NCBI GenBank assembly: GCA_943359345.1
Contig: CALRHE010000003.1
Coordinates: forward strand, 82 to 64,081
DNA length: 64,000 nt
Origin: Candidatus Uhrbacteria bacterium
Lineage (GTDB): Bacteria; Patescibacteriota; Patescibacteriia; UBA9934
Reading direction: 5' to 3'
The position numbers and the translations under genes are program-made. Shown here one piece after another: positions 4,901 to 63,009 of the stretch. A model generated the notes under the pieces. It was not told where the DNA came from. It ran no database searches and saw only the letters and a list, made by a program, of their open reading frames with translations. Position 1 is the first letter of the stretch. Every line of letters begins with the position of its first letter.

Positions 4901-5031
4901 TTAACACAGATTCGTGAGCAGCACGGACAGATTTTACACAGATAGCTAAACGGCCCTACTTGCGTTCGAGGTCGTTTTGGCTTATATCATCTGTGTTAAA
5001 TCTGTAGGCACCGATTAACTATCTGTGTAAA
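4901..5031. repeat. Two interleaved perfect inverted-repeat pairs: TTAACACAGAT / ATCTGTGTTAA and TTTACACAGATAG / CTATCTGTGTAAA.
   Basis: IR-A is 4901-4911 with 4989-4999 (11/11). IR-B is 4933-4945 with 5019-5031 (13/13). The A-B-A'-B' order places four ACACAGAT sites about 33 bp apart, which looks more like protein-binding sites than a simple hairpin. Confidence 0.6.
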
Positions 5032-5106
5032 TCAAAATCAGAGTGAGTGATGGTGTGGAGATTGTGGATAGACCCCCTTCTGTGATAGGTTAAGATTAGT
5101 ATACTG

Positions 5107-5562
5107 ATGCCACTGTTAGTTATTTTTATCGTTATGAAGTTGTCAGCCGCTTTAGACCTGGTCCAAAACGATCTGCCCCTTGTTGTCAGAGACAAAACCT
5201 TTGCTCCGCGAGGCATTGAAGAGGCCAAACTAGAAACCGGGGAGAGCGTCTACTGGGTTTATACCAAGGACGGCATGTGGCTATCCTTTGATCCAGACGG
5301 TGAGGAGATCATTCTCTTTGAAGATATTGACGAAGAGCTTGAGCCAGAGGACGACACAGTTGTGTATCAGGGCGAAGACTACGAGTTTTCGTACGAAGGT
5401 ATTGCCAAGGTGGACGATGATGACGGTGGAACTACGACTAACTTCAAGGATTACGAGAACGGTGATGGTGACTTGGTGCGGATCATGGAAGATGATTCTA
5501 CCGGAGATAAATCATACGCATACGGCATCAAAATTACCGAAGAAGATCTGCAAGAAGCGTAA
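5107..5562 (+). CDS. Hypothetical acidic protein (D/E-rich C-terminal half), probably from a leaderless transcript.
   Basis: A TATACT -10-like hexamer at 5096-5101 ends 6 nt before the ATG and there is no SD. The start could also be the internal Met at 5134. Confidence 0.45.
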   Translation: MPLLVIFIVMKLSAALDLVQNDLPLVVRDKTFAPRGIEEAKLETGESVYWVYTKDGMWLSFDPDGEEIILFEDIDEELEPEDDTVVYQGEDYEFSYEGIAKVDDDDGGTTTNFKDYENGDGDLVRIMEDDSTGDKSYAYGIKITEEDLQEA

Positions 5563-5609
5563 TCCTCATCCTCATCCTTACCATACCTACTCATTTGCCT
5601 CTCAGATCA

Positions 5610-5705
5610 GGACGGATAGAGACGGATAAGCACGGATGCGAATAATCGTAGCGTTCACTGGAATCGACATTACATCCGTCCACATCCGTCTCTATCCGTG
5701 CTTAT
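5610..5705. repeat. Family-1 palindromic element: ACGGAT decamer repeats forming a long imperfect hairpin.
   Basis: ACGGATAGAGACGGAT (5612-5627) is the exact reverse complement of 5684-5699. An inner CGGATG/CATCCG pair and 10-bp-phased GACGGATAGA|GACGGATAAG|CACGGATGCG units are present. Homologous copies lie at 36465 and 32053. Confidence 0.7.
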
Positions 5706-9476: not shown

Positions 9477-9857
9477 ATGTCTGAAGCCAAGGCCCATGAT
9501 CTCACACCGGATCAGTACAACATCTGTTTCATGAAGGGCACCGAGCCGCCATTTAGCGGCAAGTATTACGATCACCATGAGGCGGGGGAGTATATTTGTG
9601 TGAATTGCGGCAAGTCGTTATTTGGGTCAGACACCAAGTTCGATTCTGGTACAGGCTGGCCGAGTTTTTCGGATGTGGTAAACAAGGGTAACGTTCTGAC
9701 CGAGGTCGACAAAACCTTGGGTATGACCAGAACTGAGGTTAAGTGCGCTAATTGCGAGGCCCATCTCGGTCACGTGTTTGAAGACGGTCCAGCACCTACC
9801 GGGCTACGTTATTGCATCAACTCATTGGCGCTCGATTTTAAACCAATCACCCCTTAA
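9477..9857 (+). CDS. msrB: Peptide methionine sulfoxide reductase B.
   Basis: Two CxxC pairs (CVNCGK / CANCEA) and the RYCINS active-site motif. Confidence 0.8.
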
Positions 9858-9893
9858 CACCGTTAACCCCTTCAACCCCTTCATTCACTCACC
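9848..9893 (+). repeat. C-rich intercistronic motif (CACCCCTTAACACCGTTAACCCCTTCAACCCCTTCATTCACTCACC).
   Basis: It overlaps the msrB stop codon and fills the spacer to the next start. It is the same motif class as 2926, 16475 and 37933. Confidence 0.55.
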
Positions 9894-9900
9894 GCCAGGT

Positions 9901-16465: not shown

Positions 16466-16474
16466 ACCGACATG

Positions 16475-16503
16475 ACCCCTCAACACCATCAGCCCCATTA
16501 ACC
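16475..16503 (+). repeat. C-rich intercistronic motif (GACCCCTCAACACCATCAGCCCCATTAACC).
   Basis: It follows the dnaK stop directly and belongs to the same TCAACCCC class. Confidence 0.5.
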
Positions 16504-16505
16504 TT

Positions 16506-21584: not shown

Positions 21585-24088
21585 TTGGTGCTCAACAACT
21601 CCAAGCTATCTTAATGTCAGTTCTGCCGACGCTCATCATTTTGGGAGTTCTTTTAGTTATTCTCAGTTTGGCTGCTTGGAAGCTGCGCCGGCGCTTTATG
21701 AAGCGAGCCCAAGCCCGTGATGGGGCCAATACCTTGGTTACCTTGCGCATCACGATTCCACGTTTTAAAAATGATGAAGACACCAAGCAGGCTGACAATT
21801 CAAGCAATCAGAAAGATAAGATCGCTGTGGCGGAAACTTTATTCTCGGCTTTGGGTGGACTCAAGCCGGAGCGAGGTTTTTGGAGCTGGTTAGTCGGGCG
21901 CACCGATAACTTTGCGCTTGAGATTGTGGCCCACGAAAAACTTGTGACTTTTTACGTCACAGTACCCCGTCGTTATCAAGAATTTGTAGAACAGCAAATT
22001 CATGCGCAGTGGAGCGACACCTTTGTTGAGCCGGTCGAGGATTACAACATGTTTGCGCCTACTGGCACAGTTGTGGCCGGTTACTTGAAATTTAAGAAAG
22101 AAAACTTATTACCGCTAAAAACTTATAAAGATATTGACGGCGACCCTTTGAACGCACTTACAAACGCCCTGTCTAAGGTGGGGGAGAGTGACGGCCTGGC
22201 CATTCAATACGTATTGCGACCGGCAGCTAGTGGTTGGAGATCGCTCGGTTTGAAGGTCGTCAAAAACATGCAGGCGGGCATGACGTTTAATGAGGCTAAG
22301 CACGGTAAAAAATCACACAGTTGGTTTGCTAACAAGGATACGCTCGAAAAAGACAAGGAAAAAATGCGTGAACGCAAACTTTCGTCCGCCGAAACCAAGA
22401 TGCTTGAAGGTATTGAGAATAAGCTCAGTAAAGCCGCGCTAGAGACCACCATTCGGGTAGTGGCTTCGGCTGGCACCAGCGAGCAAGCCATGATGTATCT
22501 GACTAATGTCTTACAGGCTTTTGGCCAATACAACATTTACGAGTACGGTAATGCTTTTGAGAAGAGTATTCCGTCTTCCAGACACGCCATCATCGAGGGT
22601 TTTATTTTCCGCACGCATAGTTCTAAGCATAGCTTGATTTTGACCACTGAAGAGCTGGCTAGTTTGTGGCACTTGCCGTTGCCCACCACTGAAACCCCGA
22701 ATATTCGCTGGATGAATGCGCGTACAGCGCCGGCACCCACCAACACCCCAACCAGCGGTTTGCACCTGGGTTTCAATGTCTACCGTGGTCGCCAGACCGA
22801 GATTTACATGCAGGACGCTGATCGACGGCGTCACATGTACATGATCGGTAAAACTGGTTCTGGTAAGACTGAGTTAATCAAGAACCTGGCCCTACAAGAT
22901 ATCAAAAATGGTAAAGGCGTAGCTGTGATTGATCCGCACGGTGATTTGGCCGACGACTTGTTGGGCTTGATTCCCAAGGAACGCTTGGATGACGTGATTT
23001 ATTTCAACCCTTCTGACCTAGAGCGTCCGATGGGCTTGAATATGCTTGAGGCGCCTGATGAAAACATGCGAGATTTTGTGGTCCAGGAAATGATCAGTAT
23101 TTTCTACATGTTATTTCCGCCGGAGATGATCGGTCCTATGTTCGAGCACAACATGCGTAACTACATGTTGACACTCATGGCCGACGTGGATAATCCTGGC
23201 ACCATTGTTGAGATCCCGCGCATGATTTCCGATGACGCTTTTCAAAAAGCCTGGGTGGCCAAGGTTAAGGATCCGCTCGTGCGGTCTTTCTGGGAAGACG
23301 AAATGGCTAAAACCTCTGATTATCACAAGAGTGAAATGATGGGCTACCTGGTGTCTAAGGTAGGTCGGTTTGTAGAGAACGAAATGATGCGCAATATCAT
23401 CGGGCAGACTAAGTCTGCTTTCAATTTCAGGGACATCATGGATAACGGCAAGATTTTGTTGGTTAACTTGTCGAAAGGTAAAACTGGTGAAGTTAACGCC
23501 TCACTTCTTGGTTTGATTTTAGTGGCTAAATTACAGATGGCCGCATTCTCTAGAGCCGATGTGCCTGAAGATCAACGACAAGACTTTTATTTGTACATTG
23601 ACGAATTCCAGAACTTCGTGACCCCTTCAATTGCGACCATTCTGTCTGAGGCTCGGAAGTATCGCCTGAATTTAGTGCTTGCTCACCAGTACATGGGGCA
23701 GCTGGTGCGTGATGGCAAGCCAGAAATCCGTGACGCTGTGCTTGGTAACGTCGGTACCATGATGGTGGCCCGGGTTGGTCCTGAGGATATTGAAACACTA
23801 GGTAAAGTGTTCGAACCAACGTTTACCGGGCATGATTTAATGAATACCGACATGTTCACTTGGAACGTGAAGATGATCATCAACAACGCTCAAGCCAAAC
23901 CGTTTACCATGGAAGCTTATCCGCCCACCAAGGCCAGCCGACAGGTGGCCGAGGCCCTTAAGGACATTTCTCGTCTCCAGTACGGGCAGGATAAAGATTC
24001 AGTCGCCAATGACATTTTAGAGCGAGCTGGCTATGCCTCACGTAAGCAGGTTCCTCCCACACCACCGTCGGTACCAACGAGTTTATAG
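21581..24088 (+). CDS. Membrane-anchored VirB4/VirD4-superfamily (TraC/TrbE/TraG-like) type-IV-secretion-type ATPase.
   Basis: N-terminal TM helix. A Walker A (GKTGSGKT) at about residue 425 is followed by a VIDPHGD motif, then Walker B (YIDEFQNF) and an LVLAHQYMGQL (ATQS-like) motif. Confidence 0.55.
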   Translation: MIGAQQLQAILMSVLPTLIILGVLLVILSLAAWKLRRRFMKRAQARDGANTLVTLRITIPRFKNDEDTKQADNSSNQKDKIAVAETLFSALGGLKPERGFWSWLVGRTDNFALEIVAHEKLVTFYVTVPRRYQEFVEQQIHAQWSDTFVEPVEDYNMFAPTGTVVAGYLKFKKENLLPLKTYKDIDGDPLNALTNALSKVGESDGLAIQYVLRPAASGWRSLGLKVVKNMQAGMTFNEAKHGKKSHSWFANKDTLEKDKEKMRERKLSSAETKMLEGIENKLSKAALETTIRVVASAGTSEQAMMYLTNVLQAFGQYNIYEYGNAFEKSIPSSRHAIIEGFIFRTHSSKHSLILTTEELASLWHLPLPTTETPNIRWMNARTAPAPTNTPTSGLHLGFNVYRGRQTEIYMQDADRRRHMYMIGKTGSGKTELIKNLALQDIKNGKGVAVIDPHGDLADDLLGLIPKERLDDVIYFNPSDLERPMGLNMLEAPDENMRDFVVQEMISIFYMLFPPEMIGPMFEHNMRNYMLTLMADVDNPGTIVEIPRMISDDAFQKAWVAKVKDPLVRSFWEDEMAKTSDYHKSEMMGYLVSKVGRFVENEMMRNIIGQTKSAFNFRDIMDNGKILLVNLSKGKTGEVNASLLGLILVAKLQMAAFSRADVPEDQRQDFYLYIDEFQNFVTPSIATILSEARKYRLNLVLAHQYMGQLVRDGKPEIRDAVLGNVGTMMVARVGPEDIETLGKVFEPTFTGHDLMNTDMFTWNVKMIINNAQAKPFTMEAYPPTKASRQVAEALKDISRLQYGQDKDSVANDILERAGYASRKQVPPTPPSVPTSL

Positions 24089-24090
24089 GT

Positions 24091-24207
24091 TTAGAAATTA
24101 CAAAATTAGATATTAGCAGAGAATAGAAAAGAGTACTTAGAATCGTTCCGTTTCAGTCAAATTTCTATTCTCTAATAGCTGCTAATATCTAATTTTGTAA
24201 TTTCTAA
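24091..24207. repeat. Family-2 AT-rich palindromic element, copy 1 (core ATTACAAAATTAGATATTAGCAG in both arms).
   Basis: Inverted repeat of about 40 bp (24091-24129 versus 24162-24207) with a 32-nt loop and one 6-nt indel (CTATTA) between arms. A second copy lies at 30506-30618. Confidence 0.75.
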
Positions 24208-24230
24208 TCCGTAGGGTAATATTCCGCCAT

Positions 24231-26051: not shown

Positions 26052-26125
26052 TCCGGGATCGTCTAAAGGCAGGACGAGGGACTCTGAATCCCTTAATCTT
26101 GGTTCGAATCCAAGTCCCGGAACCA
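26052..26125 (+). tRNA. tRNA-Gln (anticodon CUG), with an encoded CCA end.
   Basis: Manual cloverleaf fold. Acceptor TCCGGGA/TCCCGGA (U1:A72 as in bacterial tRNA-Gln), D-stem GTCT/GGAC with a GG loop, anticodon stem AGGGA/TCCCT, loop CT-CTG-AA, T-arm CTTGG-TTCGAAT-CCAAG, discriminator A and CCA. Confidence 0.85.
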
Positions 26126-26166
26126 CAAAAACACCTTTGCTTCGGCGGAGGTGTTTTTGTGGTTCC
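26125..26166 (+). terminator. Long hairpin capped by a UUCG tetraloop, acting as an intrinsic terminator after tRNA-Gln.
   Basis: ACAAAAACACCUUUGC-UUCG-GCGGAGGUGUUUUUGU. The inner GC-rich stem is followed by a U5 tract. Together with the tRNA 3' end it forms a 56-nt palindrome (26115-26170). Confidence 0.6.
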
Positions 26167-26292
26167 GGGACAGAGAAAGCCACCTGCTTGGCTTTCGACG
26201 GATTCGAACGCCGGAGCGATGTGCAGATACCAATCGGCACTGCGAGGCGGTGGCCAGGCCGATGGGAGTGACGGCGACCCGAGAGCCGAGGC

Positions 26293-26313
26293 CGAATCCA
26301 AGTCCCGGAACCA
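26293..26313 (+). repeat. Direct duplicate of the 21-nt 3' end of tRNA-Gln (CGAATCCAAGTCCCGGAACCA), an att-like integration scar.
   Basis: Identical to 26105-26125. There is no upstream D-arm or T-stem partner, so it is a fragment and not a second tRNA. Confidence 0.7.
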
Positions 26314-26385
26314 TCACGACCTGTTCCTACAGACCCACCTTCGCTGATTAGCTTCGGTGGGCAAGCCGGGACAGGGGGTGACCAA

Positions 26386-26420
26386 GAAAACCCGTACTCT
26401 GCATTGAGTACGGGTTTTCG
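26386..26420. terminator. Bidirectional intrinsic terminator (GAAAA-CCCGTACTC-tgcatt-GAGTACGGG-TTTTCG).
   Basis: A 9-bp perfect stem with an A-tract upstream and a U-tract downstream. It lies just past the 3' end of the minus-strand recombinase fragment. Confidence 0.7.
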
Positions 26421-26445
26421 ATTGGATCTAGTGTTCAATGCTCTT

Positions 26446-26736
26446 TTACAAATGAGCGAGATGCTGTTCGAGTTCGCGGATAAACCCCTGATCCACCATA
26501 TCCACGATTGTCCCAAAATCCCTTGCGTTACGGTTCAAGCGATCTGGTGCCCAGGCAAGGATGCCGTCGAACCGCTTCAGCTTTATATCGTCAATGAGAC
26601 GATTGAATTCTGGTCGTTGGCCTGACGCCTTGGCTGAATGGCTTTCACGACGTATCTCGGTGACGAGCAATCCGTCTCGTTCCGCCGTGGCAAGCATCTC
26701 TTTCACCTGTGCTTCGAAGCTCCCTATATTCTCCAT
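26446..26736 (-). pseudogene. Truncated serine recombinase (resolvase/invertase catalytic domain only, 96 aa).
   Basis: IGSFEAQ (catalytic Ser/Gln position), SGQRPEFNRLIDDI and ILAWAPDRLNRNARDF match the resolvase core (RVSTxxQ ... SGxxxxRPxLxxLL ... VVxKLDRLGRS). The ORF stops right after helix D and has no E-helix or HTH domain. Confidence 0.6.
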
Positions 26737-26750
26737 ACGTTCGCCTTGTT

Positions 26751-26776
26751 ATGTGGCATGGACATTAATGCCACAT
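26751..26776. promoter_or_regulatory. 26-bp dyad (ATGTGGCATGGA-CA-TTAATGCCACAT), a candidate recombinase crossover/binding site.
   Basis: The 9-bp perfect arms extend to 12-bp half-sites matching 10 of 12 around a central CA dinucleotide. It lies 15 nt upstream of the recombinase fragment start. hix/gix/res subsites have the same 26-bp size and architecture. Confidence 0.45.
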
Positions 26777-26854
26777 TTGTCCGGGGTGCCTAGTCCGGGG
26801 AGTAGGTAAGTTATATGGAGTAAAAAGGTCGTTTCGTGATAAAATAATTACAAT

Positions 26855-28561
26855 ATGGCTCCTCGAGAATTTCCGCGATCCCCCGAACATCAACAACAAA
26901 GAGATGAGCTCGCTCGATCCGTTAAAGTGGACCGACAAGAACGCGACGAACTTAGACAGGAGTCCAAAACGCTTACAGGGCGGTTGCGGAAAGTTCTTGG
27001 CGGTAAAGATGCAAACGCGTTGGCGGATGTGGCGGCGAGGTCGGCCGATGAAAAACTGGCAGTTGGTCGAAGCGGGCTTGAGACAAAAGAGCGGGCACAT
27101 GAGTGGGATCAACTTGCCTTTACGCTGGAAAAAGCCGAGGAATTCGTTCGGCGAATACCGAGTATCGCAGAAGATGAAACGGAAAAGATGTGGCGAGCCG
27201 TGACTTCTCATCGTTCAGTTTTTGAAGAAGCATTGCAGGATTCGGAACGCGCAGGAGTCGTTCTCAAGCACCTCTCCTGGTTTTCACGTAATGGACGAGG
27301 AGCAAGTGGAAATGAGGCCGAAGCTGAATACTTCACATGGGTTCGTGAGCATCTGCCGTTTGTTGCAAGCTTGGCGGAAAAAGATGACGTAAATGCTCGT
27401 GGTGGATTTGCACGGGCGTTGGTCGACCTTTGGCGAAGGGTTCCCGAATCCCGAGATGAAGTTATCGCAATAATAAATGCGCATATAGATGTTATTGATG
27501 GTCTCGCGCGTACTGCAGAAGCGGATGCGGATTTTGCAGAGGCGCGGTCACTGCTTGGTGTTGTGCTTCGAAAGGGATCAAAAGAGGCAAAGGCTCAGGT
27601 AATGGAAAGTATCGGGTCGGTTTTTCGTCAGAAAGGCCAGCGCGCTGAAGATATTGTACGACTTGTATTTGATTGCGTGGGAGAGAATGTTAAAGATAGT
27701 GATGCGCTTGAACGGTCATTTGTCGCAAAACTTGCCGAAGCCTACGATATGCAGCCCGAGGGCTTGCTTCATGCATGGCGACTGTCACACGATAGAGGCG
27801 CAACGGTAGAACATATGCGATCGCTCTGTCGTCTTGAAGAACAAAGCCCTGGTGCGGCAAAACGTTTGGATGAAGATTTTGGCGTTCGCGCCTTCGCACG
27901 GTATCCTATAGAATTGCTCCTCCGACAAGCAGCCGATGCGGATAAAGGAAAGCCTTATGGCGTAATCATCATGGCGCGTGGCGATCATAACGGGAGTTTT
28001 CATCGACAAGCCTATAAGTGGTCGGATTTATTGAAAGATATAGGCGATACTCACGCTATCCGTATCATCGAAGCAGAAAGTAAGGATGAACTCACTGCGT
28101 ATGTATTAGGCATGTACCAGCGATATCAAGAGGACGGAAAGATATCGTTCGTACACATGAACGGTCACGGAAGTCCAGAGAGCATCAACCTCGGATACGA
28201 ACTCTTGCCATTTCAAGTGGATGAACGATTTGAGTTGCATCGTCTTCCTGGCCGTTTAGAAAAACAGCTCACTAAAAATGATTTATTTGGTGTTGGATAT
28301 CGCGAAGCTATAGGAATTTTTGAAGAGCATCCGACATTTGTACTTTCCTCCTGCTCAACAGGGGCGTCGCTAGGCATCGGACAGGAACTCTCGGCAATGT
28401 ACGGCGCAGAAGTTGTCGCGCCGCGTGATCCGACGAGCTTAGATCATATTCGAGCAAAGGTTGTGGATGGAAGAGTCCAGTTTGACGCCCGTTTCCAGGG
28501 CGGCGATTGGATTACGCGTCACTATGATCGAGGAAGGCTCATCGAGGCCCCTACGGAGTAG
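26855..28561 (+). CDS. Two-domain protein with an N-terminal charged alpha-helical region and a C-terminal caspase/CHAT-like (clan CD, C14-like) peptidase domain.
   Basis: A GVIIMARGDHNGSF beta-strand start leads to ISFVHMNGHG (hydrophobic strand then His-Gly), and about 65 aa later TFVLSSCSTG (hydrophobic strand then Cys). This mirrors the His/Cys dyad arrangement of metacaspase/CHAT domains. The gene is cargo next to the recombinase remnant. Confidence 0.5.
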   Translation: MAPREFPRSPEHQQQRDELARSVKVDRQERDELRQESKTLTGRLRKVLGGKDANALADVAARSADEKLAVGRSGLETKERAHEWDQLAFTLEKAEEFVRRIPSIAEDETEKMWRAVTSHRSVFEEALQDSERAGVVLKHLSWFSRNGRGASGNEAEAEYFTWVREHLPFVASLAEKDDVNARGGFARALVDLWRRVPESRDEVIAIINAHIDVIDGLARTAEADADFAEARSLLGVVLRKGSKEAKAQVMESIGSVFRQKGQRAEDIVRLVFDCVGENVKDSDALERSFVAKLAEAYDMQPEGLLHAWRLSHDRGATVEHMRSLCRLEEQSPGAAKRLDEDFGVRAFARYPIELLLRQAADADKGKPYGVIIMARGDHNGSFHRQAYKWSDLLKDIGDTHAIRIIEAESKDELTAYVLGMYQRYQEDGKISFVHMNGHGSPESINLGYELLPFQVDERFELHRLPGRLEKQLTKNDLFGVGYREAIGIFEEHPTFVLSSCSTGASLGIGQELSAMYGAEVVAPRDPTSLDHIRAKVVDGRVQFDARFQGGDWITRHYDRGRLIEAPTE

Positions 28562-28835
28562 AAACCGGAAGGGTTTTTCAGTGAGACATAGGGAGAAGTT
28601 CATATATCGCAATAATATTCCTGATATTAGCCGTAAATGTTTAAATGAGACGCTGTCTCAATACCCCGTATGTAGTGTCTTATTTGTCTCATTTCACCCC
28701 CAAGCCGTGTTCCACTTTGTGCCAGTTTTAACCCTCAGTTCTATCCGACCGGGACAGGGTTGGCAGGCAGGTAGAAGGGTGCCTCAAAGCCCCCTCATAG
28801 GCTCCAATCTAAACCGGGCCGCAGAACCAGTAAAA

Positions 28836-30478: not shown

Positions 30479-30505
30479 AAGAAGAAGCAGAATACATTAA
30501 AGGAT

Positions 30506-30618
30506 CAGAAATTACAAAATTAGATATTAGCAGCTATTAGAGAAGTAGATATTAGACTCCTGATGGATTGGATCTAATTACTATTTTCTATTCTCTGCTA
30601 ATATCTAATTTTGTAATG
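30506..30618. repeat. Family-2 AT-rich palindromic element, copy 2.
   Basis: Left arm GAAATTACAAAATTAGATATTAGCAGCTATTAGAGAAG. The right arm is the reverse complement of CATTACAAAATTAGATATTAGCAGAGAATAGAAA. It sits in the divergent dus / RNase-J-like promoter region. Confidence 0.75.
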
Positions 30619-30663
30619 ACTAATCCTTCAAACTCCACACACCTTGCTATACTTGTATGTGTT

Positions 30664-32034
30664 ATGCGTTTGTCCTTCCATGGTGCCGTTGAAGAGGTGA
30701 CTGGATCATGTTTTTTAGTTGAAACAAAACGGGCTAAAGTTTTAATTGATGCTGGCATGAAGCAGGGTGAACGTATGTGCGTGACGCGCAGCCTGGATCC
30801 ATTTGGTTTTGATGTCACAGAGCTTGATGCTGTACTCGTCACCCATGCTCACTTTGATCATACCGGGCGCTTACCAGAACTCATCAAACTTGGTTATCGG
30901 GGCCCCATTTACATGACCGCTCCTACTAAGGCTCTAGTTGAGATTATTTTGGATGATGCCTTGAAAATCATGGCTGAAAACGCTGAACGCTGCGGTGACC
31001 CTACGCCTTACAGCGCGGATCACAAGCAGCTGGCTATGTCACTCATGCAGGGCCTGGGTTATCACACTGAATTTGAGGCCGCGCCCGGAATCAAGGTCAT
31101 GTTTCATGATGCTGGTCACATTCTGGGGTCATCTTTTGTGTCACTTGACCTTGAAGACTCGTTGACTGAAACAGGTAAACCCAAGCGGATAATTTTTAGC
31201 GGCGACATTGGTAACGATCACATTCCCATTTTGCCGGAGACCGAGTCTATCCATCAAGCTGATGTTGTAGTTTGTGAGTCGACTTATGGAGATTCAATTC
31301 ACGAACCGTCTGAGACCCGTACTTTGAGGCTGGCAGATTTTGCTAGCAAAGTTTTAAAGCGCGGGGGCACGCTGGTAATCCCAGCTTTTTCAATTGAACG
31401 TACTCAGGAACTTTTGCACGAGCTCGATATTATGCTGCTCGAGAAAAAACTTCCGGCTGTACCTATTTATCTAGATAGTCCGATGGCGATTAGAACGACT
31501 GAGGTTTATCGACACTTTAAACATTACTTGCATTTCGATCACCCCGTACTTGGACCTGACCAGGATTTTTTCTCATTTCCGTCTTTGCATGAAACCATGT
31601 CGACCGAGGAATCAAAGCAGATTAACCAAGATAAGCGGGCTAAGATTATTCTTGCCGGCAACGGCATGATGACCGGCGGACGAGTCCTGCATCATCTTAA
31701 ACATCACCTTGAGGATCCTTTAAGCGGGGTCCTGATTGTTGGCTACCAGGCGGCAGGAACGTTGGGACGTAGAATTTTTGATCGTGAAAAAACAGTGCGT
31801 ATTTACCGGGAAGAATATCAAGTCAGGGCCGAGGTTTTGGCTATTGGTGCTTTTTCAGCTCATGCTGACAAAGCTAAGCTGTTACGTTGGTTACACCCAG
31901 AGGAGGGTCAGGTGGCTAAAATCTTTTTGGTCCACGGCGATAATCCCGTGAAAGATGCCTTTGCAAAGTTTTTGAGTAAATCACTGTCGGCCGAGATTAT
32001 CATTCCGCGTTTATCGCAGACGTTTGAACTGTAA
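30664..32034 (+). CDS. Beta-CASP metallo-beta-lactamase-fold ribonuclease (RNase J / CPSF-like).
   Basis: HAHFDHTG (HxHxDH) plus beta-CASP motifs A (ESTYGD), B (SAHAD) and C (LVHGD). The start was set at MRLSFHG, downstream of the family-2 repeat. Confidence 0.75.
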   Translation: MRLSFHGAVEEVTGSCFLVETKRAKVLIDAGMKQGERMCVTRSLDPFGFDVTELDAVLVTHAHFDHTGRLPELIKLGYRGPIYMTAPTKALVEIILDDALKIMAENAERCGDPTPYSADHKQLAMSLMQGLGYHTEFEAAPGIKVMFHDAGHILGSSFVSLDLEDSLTETGKPKRIIFSGDIGNDHIPILPETESIHQADVVVCESTYGDSIHEPSETRTLRLADFASKVLKRGGTLVIPAFSIERTQELLHELDIMLLEKKLPAVPIYLDSPMAIRTTEVYRHFKHYLHFDHPVLGPDQDFFSFPSLHETMSTEESKQINQDKRAKIILAGNGMMTGGRVLHHLKHHLEDPLSGVLIVGYQAAGTLGRRIFDREKTVRIYREEYQVRAEVLAIGAFSAHADKAKLLRWLHPEEGQVAKIFLVHGDNPVKDAFAKFLSKSLSAEIIIPRLSQTFEL

Positions 32035-32052: not shown

Positions 32053-32084
32053 ATCAGGACGGATGGAGACGGATATGGACAGAG
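32053..32084. repeat. Family-1 half-element (ATCAGGACGGATGGAGACGGATATGGACAGAG) with no inverted partner.
   Basis: It shares the ATCAGGACGGATRGAGACGGATA core with 5604-5630 and 36470-36498. It is followed by a 7-bp hairpin (CAGACCC/GGGTCTG) between convergent genes. Confidence 0.55.
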
Positions 32085-36464: not shown

Positions 36465-36570
36465 GATTGGGACAGATGGAGACGGATTGGGACGGATGCC
36501 AGACGATGTGGGATAGTGTGACTCGGGCTTATTTTACATCCGTTCATATCCGTCTCCATCTGTTCTTATG
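36465..36570. repeat. Family-1 palindromic element (second full copy).
   Basis: ACAGATGGAGACGGAT (36472-36487) is the exact reverse complement of 36549-36564, and an ACGGATG/CATCCGT extension follows. It sits in the divergent rlmD / trmH-like intergenic region. Confidence 0.7.
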
Positions 36571-37169: not shown

Positions 37170-37931
37170 ATGCAAAATCATACTTCAACAGTTTCAATCG
37201 TTATTCCAGCCAAGAATGAAGAACGGTATTTGCCGAGGCTGCTTAAGGATCTACATCAGCAAACCCACGTTCCCGAGCAGATCATTTTAGCCGACGCTCA
37301 GTCGACTGACAGAACCAGAGAGATTGGTGCCGAGCATGGTTGCCTCATTGTTGAGGGTGATATGCCGGGCCCTGGTCGCAATGCCGGAGCCAAAATTGCC
37401 ACCGGCGAGATTCTTTTGTTCTTAGATGCCGATGTGCAAATTCGCAATCGATTTTTTATTGAAGCCGCACTTGAGGAGTTTAATAAACAACACTTCGACT
37501 TGGCAGCGCCTGACATTCATCTGATCGGCGGTAACCGAGCAGATAAATTTGGTCATGATTTTTATAATTTTTACGTACGCCTGTGGGGTGCCAGATGGCC
37601 ACATGCTCCGGGATTTTGTACGTTTATTCGTCGGAGTCTGTTTGAGCAAATCGGTGGGTTCGATCCGTCGGTAATCTTATGTGAAGACCATGAATTGGCT
37701 CAGCGAGCCAGAAAACACGGTAAATTTGGGATCCTAGAGAGTGTTAGTATCGGGGTCACGGATAGACGCTTGCGGCGCGACGGCGGTTTAGTGGTGGCTG
37801 CAAAATATGTGTTAGCTGAGCTGCACATGTTGATTCTGGGCCCAATTCGGCACAACGCTTTTCATTATGATTTTGGATACGATCTAGATAAAGATGGGGT
37901 TAAGGGGGTTGATGAGGTTGATGGTGTATAG
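37170..37931 (+). CDS. Family-2 glycosyltransferase.
   Basis: VSIVIPAKNEE ... ILADAQSTDRT ... LFLDADV (DxD), the GT-A fold signature. Confidence 0.7.
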   Translation: MQNHTSTVSIVIPAKNEERYLPRLLKDLHQQTHVPEQIILADAQSTDRTREIGAEHGCLIVEGDMPGPGRNAGAKIATGEILLFLDADVQIRNRFFIEAALEEFNKQHFDLAAPDIHLIGGNRADKFGHDFYNFYVRLWGARWPHAPGFCTFIRRSLFEQIGGFDPSVILCEDHELAQRARKHGKFGILESVSIGVTDRRLRRDGGLVVAAKYVLAELHMLILGPIRHNAFHYDFGYDLDKDGVKGVDEVDGV

Positions 37932-37932
37932 G

Positions 37933-37965
37933 CACCCCTCAACTCCCTCAACCCCATAAACCCCG
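37933..37965 (+). repeat. C-rich intercistronic motif (CACCCCTCAACTCCCTCAACCCCATAAACCCCG).
   Basis: It follows the GT2 stop directly and belongs to the same TCAACCCC class. Confidence 0.55.
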
Positions 37966-39690: not shown

Positions 39691-41301
39691 ATGATCAAGC
39701 GTCTGTTCTCCACAACCACCACCTCAGTAGTCAGCGCCGCTGCCATTGTGGCAGGTTTTTCTTTGTTATCTAGACTGGTCGGGTTCGTTCGTGACCGTAT
39801 TTTGGCCGGTATTTTTGGCGCCGGTGACGCACTGGATGTTTATTACACCGCCTTCAGAGTACCTGACTTGGTTTTCCAGCTCATTGTAATCGGCGCCTTA
39901 TCCGCCTGTTTCATTCCGGTTTTCACACGCTACTTTGGCCACGACGATGACAAGGCTTGGAAATACACAAGCAATGTCTTAAATTTACTGACCGCCTTGT
40001 TTTTGGTGATTTCGGCCGTGGGGATTATTTTAGCCCCTGTTTACACCCCTTGGGTGGCGCCTGGTTTTAGCCCAGACAAGCAAGCCCTAGTGGTGGCTGC
40101 TACCCGCGTCATGTTTTTGGGTCAAGCCATGTTTGCCATTTCAATGGTTTTTGGATCAGTTCTTCAGGGGGCCAAACGCTTTATTTTGTACTCGTTTGCG
40201 CCGATCATTAACAACGTTGGGATTTTGTTTGGGGCCGTTTTTTTGGTACCAGTTTTTGGCTTGATGGGTTTGGCCTGGGGTGCAGTCCTGGGGGCTATAT
40301 TACATGCTTTGATTCAAACTGTAGGTGTTTATGCCTTGGGCTACCGTTACACTTTAAGTTTAAATTTTCGTGATCCAGATATTCAGTACACGCTCCGTCA
40401 AATGGGGCCACGGGTGATGGGGATTGGAGTTGGACAGTTAAATTTTTTGTTAATGACTTTACTGGCCACGGGGCTAGCTCATGGCTCTGTCACGATCTTG
40501 CAGTTTGCTTACAACCTTAACTTTTTTCCGATTGGGGTGATCGGTGTGGCCTACGCCATTGCAGCCTTTCCGACTTTTTGCGAGTTTGTAAAAGATGACG
40601 AGCTGAATAAGCTCAGGGAAGCCTTTTCAAATACTGTGCGACAAGTCATGTTCTTGATTATTCCGGGAACGATTGTGTCATTGTTGTTACGCGCTCAAAT
40701 AGTTCGTTTAGTTTTTGGTGCCGGTGTCTTTGACTGGACCGATACGATTGTGACCGCCGACACTTTGGCGATGTTTGCGCTTAGTTTTTTTGCTCAGTGT
40801 TTGGTGTTTGTGATCGTACGGGTCTTTTTTGCCTATGGGGACAGCCGTTCGCCTTTTTTGGCGGGTTTGATTGCGGCTGCTATATCTGCGGTCTGCGGAT
40901 TTTTACTGGCACCTGCTTATGGTGTCCCGGGACTGGCCTGGGCTTTTTCCTTGGCCTCGATGGTACAGTTGGCGGTGCTGTGGGTGCTTTTAAAAGCTAA
41001 ATTAGGATCACTAGATGAAAAGATGATTCTAAAATCAACCGCACTTTTATCTGTAGCTGGGGCAGTCACAGCCGCAGTTACTCAAGCTATGAAGTATTTT
41101 GTGGTTGACTATGTGCATCTGGATACTTTTATGAATGTGTTATTCCAAACCCTGGCTGCAGGCGGCGCTGGACTAGTCATGTATTTTGCTACAGCTTTTT
41201 TGCTAGGCAGCCCAGAAATGGTGGCCTTTGCGGCTGGTCTCCACGCCCGGGTTATTCGTTCAGCTAAGCCGACTGAAATTGTTCAACAAGAGCTTGTCTA
41301 A
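39691..41301 (+). CDS. murJ: Lipid II flippase MurJ.
   Basis: A 14-TM MOP-superfamily protein with the MurJ N-terminus (ILAGIFGAGDALDVYYTAFRVPDL). Confidence 0.8.
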   Translation: MIKRLFSTTTTSVVSAAAIVAGFSLLSRLVGFVRDRILAGIFGAGDALDVYYTAFRVPDLVFQLIVIGALSACFIPVFTRYFGHDDDKAWKYTSNVLNLLTALFLVISAVGIILAPVYTPWVAPGFSPDKQALVVAATRVMFLGQAMFAISMVFGSVLQGAKRFILYSFAPIINNVGILFGAVFLVPVFGLMGLAWGAVLGAILHALIQTVGVYALGYRYTLSLNFRDPDIQYTLRQMGPRVMGIGVGQLNFLLMTLLATGLAHGSVTILQFAYNLNFFPIGVIGVAYAIAAFPTFCEFVKDDELNKLREAFSNTVRQVMFLIIPGTIVSLLLRAQIVRLVFGAGVFDWTDTIVTADTLAMFALSFFAQCLVFVIVRVFFAYGDSRSPFLAGLIAAAISAVCGFLLAPAYGVPGLAWAFSLASMVQLAVLWVLLKAKLGSLDEKMILKSTALLSVAGAVTAAVTQAMKYFVVDYVHLDTFMNVLFQTLAAGGAGLVMYFATAFLLGSPEMVAFAAGLHARVIRSAKPTEIVQQELV

Positions 41302-41372
41302 CAGGGGCCAACAGCTACAGCTTCCAAGCGGGGCGACCCGGGTGCTCTGTAAGAGTGAGTAATGATTTTACA

Positions 41373-41462
41373 AACGCGACACTATCGCGTTGGGTCAAAA
41401 TAATCTTTAAATATATTAGTACATTTACAGATTTATCGTTTATAACGCGACAGTGTCGCGTT
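41373..41462. promoter_or_regulatory. Two copies of an operator-like palindrome AACGCGACA-N-TGTCGCGTT flanking promoter-like hexamers upstream of alaS.
   Basis: 41373-41391 has a 7-bp arm and 5-nt centre. 41444-41462 has a perfect 9-bp arm and 1-nt centre. TTGGGT-16-TATATT lies between them at 41390-41417. Confidence 0.5.
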
Positions 41463-41596
41463 TGATAAAATGCGATTTGTAAATTGAGTATAGATGAGAG
41501 CGAAGACCGAGCATGTATTTGGGTGGTTTTTATCAGCAGAATCAGGTTCAGGATGCCCGTTGCATTTTCATGTGTTTCCAGTAGACTATTGTCAAT

Positions 41597-43375
41597 ATGT
41601 TGACCGCTAACGAACTCCGAAAAAAATACCTGGCCTTCTTTTTGAGTAAGGGCCACGCCGAAATTCAATCAGCCTCGCTTGTGCCCGAAAACGATCCCAC
41701 GGTTTTGTTTACAACCGCGGGTATGCACCCGCTCGTGCCTTACTTGCTTGGTGAGCCGCACCCAATGGGGAAACGTCTGGTTGATTATCAGCGTTGTATT
41801 CGGACGGGTGATATCGACGACGTGGGTGATGACACGCACCTAACGTTTTTTACCATGCTCGGCAATTGGTCGCTTGGTGATTACTTCAAAAAAGACTCGA
41901 TTGAATGGTCGTTTGAGTTTCTGACGAGCTCGGAATGGTTGAATATTCCGCTTGATAAACTTTCTATCACCGTATTTGAGGGTGATGCGAATACGCCGTT
42001 TGATCAAGAATCTTACGATCATTGGATCGGGCTCGGCGTTGCCCCCGGAAGAATCGCCAAACTCGGACTCGAGGATAATTGGTGGCCAGCTGGTGGAAAA
42101 CATACTGGTCCGCAAGGACCGGACACCGAGATCTTTTATTGGGTTGGTGAAGGCGAGCCTGTTGGCAATAAGGGAACTCACTCTAAAGAATGGATGGAGA
42201 TTTGGAATAACGTCTTTATGCAGTTCAGCAAAGGTGCCGATGGCGCCTTGTCTGCACTCGAGCATCAGAACGTCGACACCGGCATGGGACTCGAGCGAAC
42301 GATCGTTGCGCTTCAAGGTCGATCGAACGTTTACGAGACCGAGTTGTTCACGGGAATTCTCAAGAAGCTCGAGGAGCTTTCCAGTTTTGAATATGCTGCG
42401 AGTGCTGAGATAAAGAAATCAATGCGCGTCATCGCCGATCACCTCCGAGCTGCGTCGATCATGTTCATGGATGGGGTTGAACCTAGCAATAAGGACCAAG
42501 GTTATGTTTTACGACGCTTGATTCGTAGAGCTATCCGACACTCCAAGAAAATCGGTATTGAATCTCAAAAACTTGTAGCCCCAATTGTTAACGAGGTCGT
42601 GAGCTCGCTCGGCGAGTCGTACCCGATGCTTGTCGAGAAGCAGGACAAAATTGTCGCCGGCTTGCTTGCCGAAGCTCAGAAGTTTGAAAAGACTCTAGCT
42701 CAAGGCTTGCGCGAATTCTCAAAATTCTGGGAAAAGAACAAGTCTGTCTCCGGCGAAGACGCTTTCAATCTTTATCAGTCTTACGGTTTCCCATTAGAAG
42801 TGACGCATGAGCTCGCTCACGAGCAGGGGCTCGAAGTCGACCGCGAGGCTTTTGCTGCCGAGTTTAAGAAGCATCAAGACTTGTCGCGACAAGGCGCTGA
42901 GAAAAAGTTCGCCGGTGGGCTCGCTGATCACTCAGTCGAAACAACGAAACTCCATACGGCTACACACCTATTGCACCAGGCTCTGCGAGCAGTGCTCGGC
43001 GATCACGTCGAGCAAAAGGGCAGCAACATTACGGCCGAGCGTTTGCGTTTCGATTTCTCCCACGACAAAAAAATGACCCCGGACGAGATTAAACAGGTCG
43101 AGGACATCGTTAATGAACAGATTAAGAGAGATTTGAAGGTTCACTCTGAGCAGCTTACGGTCGAAGAGGCTAAAACTCGTGGCGCCATTGGTTTGTTCGA
43201 AGATAAATACGCCCAGATCGGAGGCAAGATCAACGTTTACTTCATGGGTGACTTTTCAAAAGAAATTTGCGGCGGTCCGCATGTTGAACACACTGGCCAG
43301 CTGGGTGGCATCAAGATCCAGAAAGAAGAGGCCAGCTCGGCGGGTGTGCGACGCATTAAGGCGATTTTGGGCTAG
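41597..43375 (+). CDS. alaS: Alanyl-tRNA synthetase (catalytic and editing domains, lacking the C-terminal C-Ala domain).
   Basis: AlaRS N-terminus (LFTTAGMHP, GNWSFGDYFKK-like) and editing-site HxxxH...CGGPHV. The protein is 592 aa versus the canonical length of about 875. Confidence 0.85.
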   Translation: MLTANELRKKYLAFFLSKGHAEIQSASLVPENDPTVLFTTAGMHPLVPYLLGEPHPMGKRLVDYQRCIRTGDIDDVGDDTHLTFFTMLGNWSLGDYFKKDSIEWSFEFLTSSEWLNIPLDKLSITVFEGDANTPFDQESYDHWIGLGVAPGRIAKLGLEDNWWPAGGKHTGPQGPDTEIFYWVGEGEPVGNKGTHSKEWMEIWNNVFMQFSKGADGALSALEHQNVDTGMGLERTIVALQGRSNVYETELFTGILKKLEELSSFEYAASAEIKKSMRVIADHLRAASIMFMDGVEPSNKDQGYVLRRLIRRAIRHSKKIGIESQKLVAPIVNEVVSSLGESYPMLVEKQDKIVAGLLAEAQKFEKTLAQGLREFSKFWEKNKSVSGEDAFNLYQSYGFPLEVTHELAHEQGLEVDREAFAAEFKKHQDLSRQGAEKKFAGGLADHSVETTKLHTATHLLHQALRAVLGDHVEQKGSNITAERLRFDFSHDKKMTPDEIKQVEDIVNEQIKRDLKVHSEQLTVEEAKTRGAIGLFEDKYAQIGGKINVYFMGDFSKEICGGPHVEHTGQLGGIKIQKEEASSAGVRRIKAILG

Positions 43376-51306: not shown

Positions 51307-51359
51307 GATATTCGGTCCACTAAGACGCCGATCGGCGTCTTAGTGGACCGAATCGAAAT

Positions 51360-62931: not shown

Positions 62932-63009
62932 CGAATTTATTAAAAACAACGACGCCGCCCACGATTGCCAGCTGGCAGGTGTGGGCGGCGTTGAGCCTTA
63001 GGTCGCGAC

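Follow-up and report, generated by a model that had tools for sequence, protein, structure and literature searches.

The window, by which we mean the whole stretch of 64,000 nt that was analyzed, carries two long imperfect palindromes of AT-rich DNA. Copy A occupies the space between the stop codon of a gene for an 835-aa TrwB/DUF87-type ATPase and dnaX (24231); the ATPase stop is TAG at 24086-24088, and its last G is the first base of the copy. Copy B lies between the divergent dus and beta-CASP/RMMBL RNase genes. Judged by the homologues of dnaX, the organism belongs to the uncultivated Patescibacteria, near Candidatus Uhrbacteria. An earlier sequence-only reading had reported both palindromes in these gene contexts (upstream of dnaX and in the dus/RNase divergent region), and we found them as described. 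Its boundaries, 24091-24207 and 30506-30618, marked the right loci but were drawn too tightly, as the elements are a few bases wider (24088-24210 and 30502-30626). The arms of copy A (24088-24141/24157-24210) are 54 nt long and those of copy B (30497-30544/30584-30631) are 48 nt long, and in both copies they are 83% complementary. The GC content is 27.6% in copy A and 28.8% in copy B, compared with 49.5% in the window. Within the narrower boundaries it is 25.6% and 27.4%, in line with the figure of about 25% in DNA of 50% GC given at first. The features of the two copies are as follows.

24088..24210, minus strand: copy A, full element, 123 bp (inverted repeat I2; hairpin -34.9 kcal/mol, z -11.8; nhmmer E 2e-34)
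24097..24119, plus strand: 23-mer core of copy A, ATPase-side arm (exact match)
24142..24156, no strand: central loop/spacer of copy A, with no sequence relationship to the other copies' loops (alignment A4; folds)
24179..24201, minus strand: 23-mer core of copy A, dnaX-side arm (exact match)
30502..30626, plus strand: copy B, full element, 125 bp (inverted repeat I4; hairpin -29.9 kcal/mol, z -9.1; nhmmer E 4e-34)
30511..30533, plus strand: 23-mer core of copy B, dus-side arm (exact match)
30556..30572, no strand: central loop of copy B (approximate), which varies between copies (alignment A4; fold)
30595..30617, minus strand: 23-mer core of copy B, RNase-side arm (exact match)
30568..30663, plus strand: artefactual 5' extension of the RNase ORF, with a TTG start inside copy B (ORF list)

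The 23-mer shared by all four arms, as first claimed, is ATTACAAAATTAGATATTAGCAG. It has four exact matches in the window, one at each site, with 0 expected (100 shuffles), and no additional site was found in the window when up to three mismatches were allowed. Each element consists of two inverted arms of about 55 nt that flank a short loop, which varies by copy. The arm reads as a degenerate heptamer array, with TTAG or TTAC closing the units and CAG breaking the series (GGATTAG TCATTAC AAAATTAG ATATTAG CAG CTATTAG ...), and its 23-nt core is near-invariant. The best-conserved stretch is subterminal (the 23-mer) and not at the extreme ends. TTAG is confined to one arm and CTAA to the other; in copy B, ATTAG/CTAAT was observed 8 times against 0.57 expected from composition, strictly segregated by strand.

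Since CTATTAG is present in just one arm, the element has an orientation, and the arm that bears it was used to orient each copy (in copy A, the right arm on the + strand). This bears on a CTATTA indel that swaps sides between the two copies, which had been taken as a sign of mobility. The difference is real. When copy A is reverse-complemented, however, it is 88% identical to copy B with CTATTA in register, whereas on the same strand the identity is 81% and CTATTA is displaced. The sides are swapped because an asymmetric element sits in opposite orientation in A and B, and this orientation effect is no argument for mobility.

As single-stranded DNA, the two copies fold far better than their shuffles (z -9 to -12; -7 to -12 over the hairpins tested). 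The lone 55-nt arms and the 23-mer fold no better than shuffles (0 to -0.5 kcal/mol, z +0.3 to +1.1). The proposal that the palindromes are cruciform-forming sites stands as a physical possibility only. We found no compensatory change at the 42 predicted pairs among five distinct copies: each arm substitution breaks a pair, and the covariation term is positive. At the low diversity among the copies, this is weak evidence that arm sequence, and not pairing, may be maintained.

The element is non-coding. Stop codons are present in six of six frames, and the open stretches (LLISNFV..., ITKLDIS...) are 10-27 aa. A simple scan called no promoter-like or terminator-like site inside copies A and B, and an intrinsic terminator, which would have a short GC-rich stem and then a T-run, was rejected for these AT-rich 50-bp stems. 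At the gathering threshold, Rfam returned tRNAs only and no family for the element; the permissive search added only sub-threshold matches to plant miRNA precursors, which are generic long hairpins. As the sequence-only reading had suspected, copy B artefactually extends the RNase ORF. The true RNase start is the ATG at 30664, which is conserved in eight to nine related loci (L005, L014-L021; fetched loci are given as L numbers), and two public gene calls carry the false 32-codon extension (488 aa vs 456 aa).

Copies across the genome and the same sites in relatives

We tiled 98,076 bp of the same genome from public assemblies, using window-edge genes and exact-sequence look-ups, and searched this tiling (about 10% of the genome) with a profile built from the full copies. 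Five family members were found, four full elements (A-D) and one solo arm (E), so A and B are not the only copies. The three members located by the profile search in addition to A and B are listed here.

L010 2356-2487: copy C, on one side of the UDP-glucose dehydrogenase gene
L010 3782-3905: copy D, on the other side of the UDP-glucose dehydrogenase gene from copy C
L008 about 5078-5133: copy E, solo arm, in a convergent spacer

The copies are dispersed up to 73 kb apart, and a further 17 kb along the source contig (a metagenome contig of 97,863 bp) held no additional copy. If the tiled tenth is representative, the genome-wide copy number might be about 50, which is a guess. Elements of the family are about 123-133 bp long. 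By comparison of all copies, full elements begin with GGnTTAG and end with CTAAnCC, and the 23-mer is identical in nine of ten arms. Two subtypes, A/B and C/D, are distinguished by the inner part of one arm. All five copies are intergenic and nearly fill spacers that are otherwise very short. Their contexts include operon-internal positions, a divergent promoter region, a position after a stop codon, and a convergent spacer; copies A and C lie within probable operons and D at a gene 3' end. The flanking genes are functionally unrelated. The family is thus a dispersed non-coding palindromic repeat that is inserted into short intergenic spacers and has solo-arm derivatives.

The same sites were compared in relatives. 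At site A, the spacer between the ATPase gene and dnaX is 20-21 nt in L005 and L006 and 142 nt here. These relatives have the same gene order (dnaX 76% and 72% identical), and aligning them leaves one clean gap, about 122-126 bp long, exactly over the element. At site B, the dus-RNase spacer is about 75 nt in L021, the closest relative by RNase identity (75%), compared with 186 nt here; L021 is without the element, and so is the corresponding spacer of L014. At sites C and D, the spacers are 44 and 40 nt in a 75% relative (L030), and site D is also empty (49 nt) in an 87% relative (L029). The relatives therefore have short empty spacers at these sites and not unrelated sequence of similar length. 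No family member was found in about 200 kb of the relatives' DNA.

A sister genome (GCA_943356555.1, with matching ENA contigs) is 94-99% identical in nucleotide sequence over the regions compared and has A, B, C, and E in common with this genome. In its locus L032, site A is occupied and copy B is identical. Its site D holds a solo arm only, and the junction is the same as here (stop codon, A, GGATTAG). Because the sites of the relatives are empty and the sister genome shares the insertions, the sequence comparison places the insertions after the split from the relatives of about 75% protein identity and before the two sister genomes diverged. Since the sister genome carries the family at all five sites as well, very recent movement is not in evidence.

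The two sister genomes differ within the copies. Of the orthologous D copies, one is a solo arm (L027 1327-1400) and the other a full element (L010 3782-3905). Their outer 32 nt are identical, and the next 18 nt differ by an indel and four substitutions. In its inner arm, the solo D is of the type seen in copy B and solo arm E, which makes the pattern mosaic. In addition, the sister copy A differs by clustered changes, one of which swaps AGAAATTAC for AGTCATTAC, a variant known from other copies. From the mosaic D copies and the copy A variant, it is reasonable to suggest that the copies exchange sequence.

The junctions do not depend on one assembly: the same ones were recovered in MEGAHIT assemblies of several samples, a SPAdes-style (NODE_...) ENA assembly, Logan assemblies, and an NCBI MAG. 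Four contigs from independent assemblies (L002, L027, L028, and L039) start or end inside an arm, and such breaks are typical of a multi-copy repeat.

Target sites, outside matches and the mobilizing enzyme

The sequence-only reading had called for a check of target-site duplications at the ends. Only one candidate was obtained, at copy A, where the TAG of the ATPase stop forms part of a short direct repeat.

24086..24089, plus strand: TAGG, first half of the only candidate target-site duplication, TAG being the ATPase stop (sequence; alignment with empty sites)
24212..24215, plus strand: TAGG, second half of the candidate duplication at copy A (sequence; alignment with empty sites)

The flanks of copy A can be read as a TAGG (or TA) direct repeat. 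A duplication-free model fits the spacer length of the relatives equally well, as cutting GG...CC from copy A without a duplication restores the TAG stop and a 19-nt spacer like theirs. No duplication was found flanking copies B, C, and D. The relatives that supply the empty sites are too diverged for base-exact junctions. A consistent target duplication was thus not obtained from five copies and four empty sites.

Several likenesses were observed in the flanks. Copies A and B both have GAGTTT(AT/GA)AGG immediately outside the same end (24079-24089 and 30625-30635). At copy A, this motif encodes the conserved Ser-Leu-stop that closes the ATPase gene, and it is not part of the element there because these are conserved C-terminal codons. 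The dus-RNase spacers of L021 and L014 carry GAGTTTACAGG, which lies on the other side and strand from the GAGTTT motif of the copies. The GAGTTT flank motif may reflect an insertion-site preference or coincidence. Other flank likenesses, considered as candidate element ends or target motifs, are CTCG..GCAGG at C and E and TTCGG at C and D, and these too may be a target preference or chance.

We searched for a mobilizing enzyme with Pfam, NCBIfam, and PHROGs on the window ORFs and with the Pfam tables of every fetched locus. In the 98 kb, about 10% of the genome, no gene was found to carry a transposase, integrase, or RAYT/Y1 domain. Similarly, no autonomous element with matching ends was found in the GTDB genomes, JGI metagenomes, or viral contigs.

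Matches outside the lineage were sought with an exact scan for an arm 20-mer, which gave none in 185,579 GTDB species genomes and none in viral contigs. Two matches were returned from the JGI metagenomes, both to one arm-like 23-mer in bacterial 23S rRNA. The match at L004 8240-8263 (also L003) is 23 nt long, exact to the arm core, and belongs to an unrelated organism of 38% GC. We rejected these matches as family members: the segment lies in a standard, fully paired helix (model positions about 315-400), and the likeness is attributed to chance. The plasmid, phage, and E. coli collections yielded nothing beyond 24 nt that match Enterococcus phage coding genes by chance, and 5,426 complete E. 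coli genomes, searched by blastn (word size 11) as the test for ERIC, contained no match. The family has no counterpart outside its lineage in the collections searched and, on these comparisons, is a hitherto undescribed family of a familiar type of element.

Other palindromes in the window and in relatives

The repeat described above is referred to as family 2, and other palindromes of about 100 nt with a like layout were observed alongside it in the window. A second palindromic family (family 1) is built of GACGGAT units, with hairpins at 5606-5705 and 36466-36569 and a solo arm at 32053-32083. Its full hairpins are about 100 nt long (-52 and -57 kcal/mol). The spacer that holds the 5606-5705 hairpin is 180 nt long versus 36 nt in a 75% relative, so this too looks like an insertion. 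A 99-nt palindrome at 4933-5031 is made of ACACAGAT units; its motif TTTACACAGAT also occurs in a 131-nt palindrome of a more distant Patescibacteria relative (L020 4367-4497), and on this evidence some palindrome families may be older and wider than family 2. Another AT-rich palindrome (41366-41469, about 104 nt, arms TTTTACAAACGCGACACTATCGCGTT / AACGCGACAGTGTCGCGTTTGATAAA) lies between murJ (39691-41301) and alaS (41597-43375).

A CCCCTCAAC-like 9-mer is repeated in short tandem runs at gene boundaries (2919-2966, 9850-9896, 16467-16505, and 37899-37964), and at 37899-37964 two such runs face each other as an inverted pair. Two intergenic, GC-richer palindromes at 51310-51353 and 62952-62991 are perfect or near-perfect (22-nt arms without a loop and 26-nt overlapping arms, respectively); they are probably terminators or protein-binding sites unrelated to family 2.

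The tRNA gene at 26052-26122 overlaps at its 3' end a perfect hairpin with 23-nt arms (26114-26171), and the last 21 nt of the tRNA gene are repeated at 26293-26313. Directly after this repeat lies a segment of about 2.5 kb (26322-28823) that is absent from the sister locus L032. Its 568-aa ORF (26855-28561) has no Pfam, NCBIfam, or PHROG match. The segment resembles a small insertion, specific to this strain, at an attachment site derived from a tRNA.

Uhrbacteria relatives have motif-array palindromes of their own (L015 4149-4245 and 17568-17637; L016 13829-13911), with GGGGGTA and CTTAAG/TTTAG units. In the 87% relative, the spacer that corresponds to copy C (L029 about 1390-1513) holds a hairpin of about 120 nt (z -5.5) with TTAGCC units. 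The TTAG of this hairpin is in register with family 2 (z 3.7-5.3 over shuffles), and the profile search for family 2 did not detect it. The hairpin may be homologous to family 2 and diverged, or it may represent an independent family.

A broader reading, which rests on this TTAGCC hairpin, would take these palindromes together. Uhrbacteria-like CPR bacteria would carry a clade-specific mobile "foldback" class, namely palindromes of about 100-130 nt with arms of short motifs, which would spread without target duplication by a non-canonical enzyme that reads the motif or hairpin, motif and enzyme co-evolving by lineage. The motifs of such a class may be ATTAG here, TTAGCC in the 87% relative, and GACGGAT, ACACAGAT, and GGGGGTA in the other families. 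We regard this reading as speculative and doubtful. If it were true, the in-register TTAG units amid changed bases would mark the points of protein contact.

Nature of the element and comparison with known systems

We interpret the family as a small, non-coding, AT-rich dispersed repeat that is a non-autonomous mobile element of the MITE type with a palindrome over its whole length (ERIC, RUP, or Correia-like) in Uhrbacteria-like Patescibacteria, with a probability of roughly 0.72. A MITE was among the options raised by the sequence-only reading, and the five copies and the short empty spacers in relatives support it. A prokaryotic MITE is about 50-800 bp long and has no transposase or coding capacity (PMC11602168). 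Known MITE properties include the size, terminal inverted repeats, long hairpins, filled and empty sites, co-transcription with neighboring genes, and effects through RNase III or RNase E (PMC10969869, PMC3184786, PMC11602168). The terminal repeats expected of a MITE are at least 10-15 bp long, and the arms here have 48-54 nt with a perfect 23-nt core in both. In the strict sense the family is a candidate MITE: the size, terminal repeats, copies, and filled and empty sites fit, and the target duplication, which in a MITE is 2-10 bp long and flanks each copy, is inconsistent between copies.

In this interpretation, a trans-acting protein encoded elsewhere in the genome would move the element by recognizing the TTAG units or the 23-mer. 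The mover would be a transposase acting in trans or possibly an enzyme specific for single strands or hairpins, the latter being considered because clear target duplications are lacking. Solo arms would arise by palindrome-stimulated deletion of one arm, and the copies appear to exchange sequence by gene conversion. The operon-internal copies A and C are presumably co-transcribed and would fold in the RNA into a long hairpin rich in A and U, which would affect mRNA processing incidentally if at all. The element is most likely selfish or neutral DNA and not a regulatory device of the host.

Other readings were weighed against the MITE-type element. The family might be REPIN-like, that is, an inverted doublet hairpin moved without target duplication by a single-copy HUH/Y1 enzyme (RAYT- or IS200/IS605-like), its solo arms being decaying singlets. 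The two conserved inverted units, a spacer that differs in each copy yet folds, the solo arms (E, and D in the sister genome), the inconsistent target duplication, and the several distinct palindromic families in one genome would all suit this reading. However, the short imperfect palindrome that defines a REP is absent from each unit (0 to -0.5 kcal/mol), and we read no GTAG/CGTC tag in the sequence at the unit end (tags per PMC3733652). Furthermore, no gene in the 98 kb has a Y1 transposase domain, and the units are AT-rich and 55 nt long instead of GC-rich and 20-40 nt. We therefore consider a REPIN-like element unlikely. A structure functional for the host is less probable still; the hairpin would then have spread once and been domesticated, being kept as an RNase III site, an mRNA stabilizer or attenuator, a cruciform, or a nucleoid-protein site. 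In its favor, the hairpins are of high stability (z -7 to -12), copies A and C are in probable operons and D is at a gene 3' end, positions from which Correia and ERIC affect mRNA (PMC10969869, PMC3184786), and the site-C palindrome of the 87% relative keeps a hairpin and in-register TTAG while the bases between differ. Nevertheless, none of the 42 pairs shows compensation and the covariation term is positive, neither A nor B has a promoter- or terminator-like site, position and orientation relative to genes vary, the same operons in relatives are without the element, and Rfam has no family for it.

The two remaining explanations we hold to be very improbable. The sequence-only reading had also suggested a shared operator, at which one regulator would bind the palindrome and co-control dnaX, dus, the RNase, and other genes, and a palindrome with an invariant core upstream of several genes is what such a site would look like. 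This suggestion did not survive: an element of 123-133 bp with 55-nt arms is far above operator size, copies are also present 3' of genes and within a convergent spacer, the flanking genes are unrelated in function, and solo arms persist. An operator would keep a fixed place relative to the promoters of its regulon and be conserved along with the regulated genes. Because the contexts vary and relatives of identical gene order lack the element, it is not an operator. An artefact or local duplication, either an assembly chimera or an in-place hairpin copied once nearby, is the least credible explanation. Assemblers do break at these sequences, but five independent assemblies agree on the same junctions, and five copies are spread over distances of up to 73 kb.

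Proteobacteria, firmicutes, and cyanobacteria are well known to carry small palindromic mobile repeats. In the parts of the literature that our search covered, we found no description of such repeats in CPR. The main text of a 2024 NAR survey of 183,232 genomes mentions neither Patescibacteria nor candidate phyla nor CPR, and the passages of a 2024 review consulted here do not mention Patescibacteria/CPR. CPR genomes are tiny, gene-dense, and usually thought to be streamlined, those of Uhrbacteria-like bacteria being about 1 Mb. In practice, the repeats break metagenome assemblies, as with the four contigs that end inside an arm, and mislead gene callers, as with the RNase that is 32 codons too long in two public assemblies. 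They also provide strain-level markers for an uncultivated lineage. Should the mobilizing enzyme prove unusual, the family would open a way to study transposition in unculturable organisms; otherwise it is one more MITE family.

Among known systems, the MITEs that are imperfect palindromes over their whole length (about 100-160 bp) come closest; ERIC (about 127 bp), RUP (107 bp), and Correia elements (104-157 bp) are of similar length (PMC3184786), and the RNA hairpins of Correia and ERIC are substrates of RNase III or expose an RNase E site (PMC10969869, PMC3184786). Like them, this family is 123-133 bp long, non-coding, intergenic, present in both orientations, able to form a long hairpin, and dispersed, with filled and empty sites in related genomes, and it sometimes overlaps or extends ORF ends. 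Unlike them, it has no consistent TA or other target duplication, and it has no sequence similarity to them, with no match in the E. coli genomes, plasmids, and phages searched. Its arms are TTAG heptamer arrays and not a unique terminal repeat plus a core, its best conservation is subterminal, and its host is a CPR bacterium.

REPINs are inverted doublets with a variable spacer, occur with singlets and in several families per genome, and lack target duplication (PMC3337134). The RAYT gene that goes with them, for a Y1 HUH transposase, usually has the repeats on its flanks. This family shares with them the inverted doublet, a copy-specific spacer that still forms a hairpin, the singlets, and the presence of several families. 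In contrast, its units are longer, AT-rich, and devoid of an internal imperfect palindrome, and RAYT was not seen in the 98 kb. Nezha and other cyanobacterial MITEs are 130-170 bp long and form thermodynamically stable hairpins, and their mobility was deduced by comparing filled with empty orthologous sites (PMC3184786). Nezha itself is flanked by direct repeats, and its terminal repeats also occur in a known insertion sequence, ISNpu3. This family is similar to Nezha in its size, stable hairpin, and evidence from empty and filled sites, and it differs in that it has no consistent duplication and no partner insertion sequence was found. The Foldback (FB) elements of eukaryotes are kilobase-scale transposons with long inverted arms of short tandem repeats and a heterogeneous center. 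The arm arrays and variable center described here resemble theirs, and the resemblance is architectural only.
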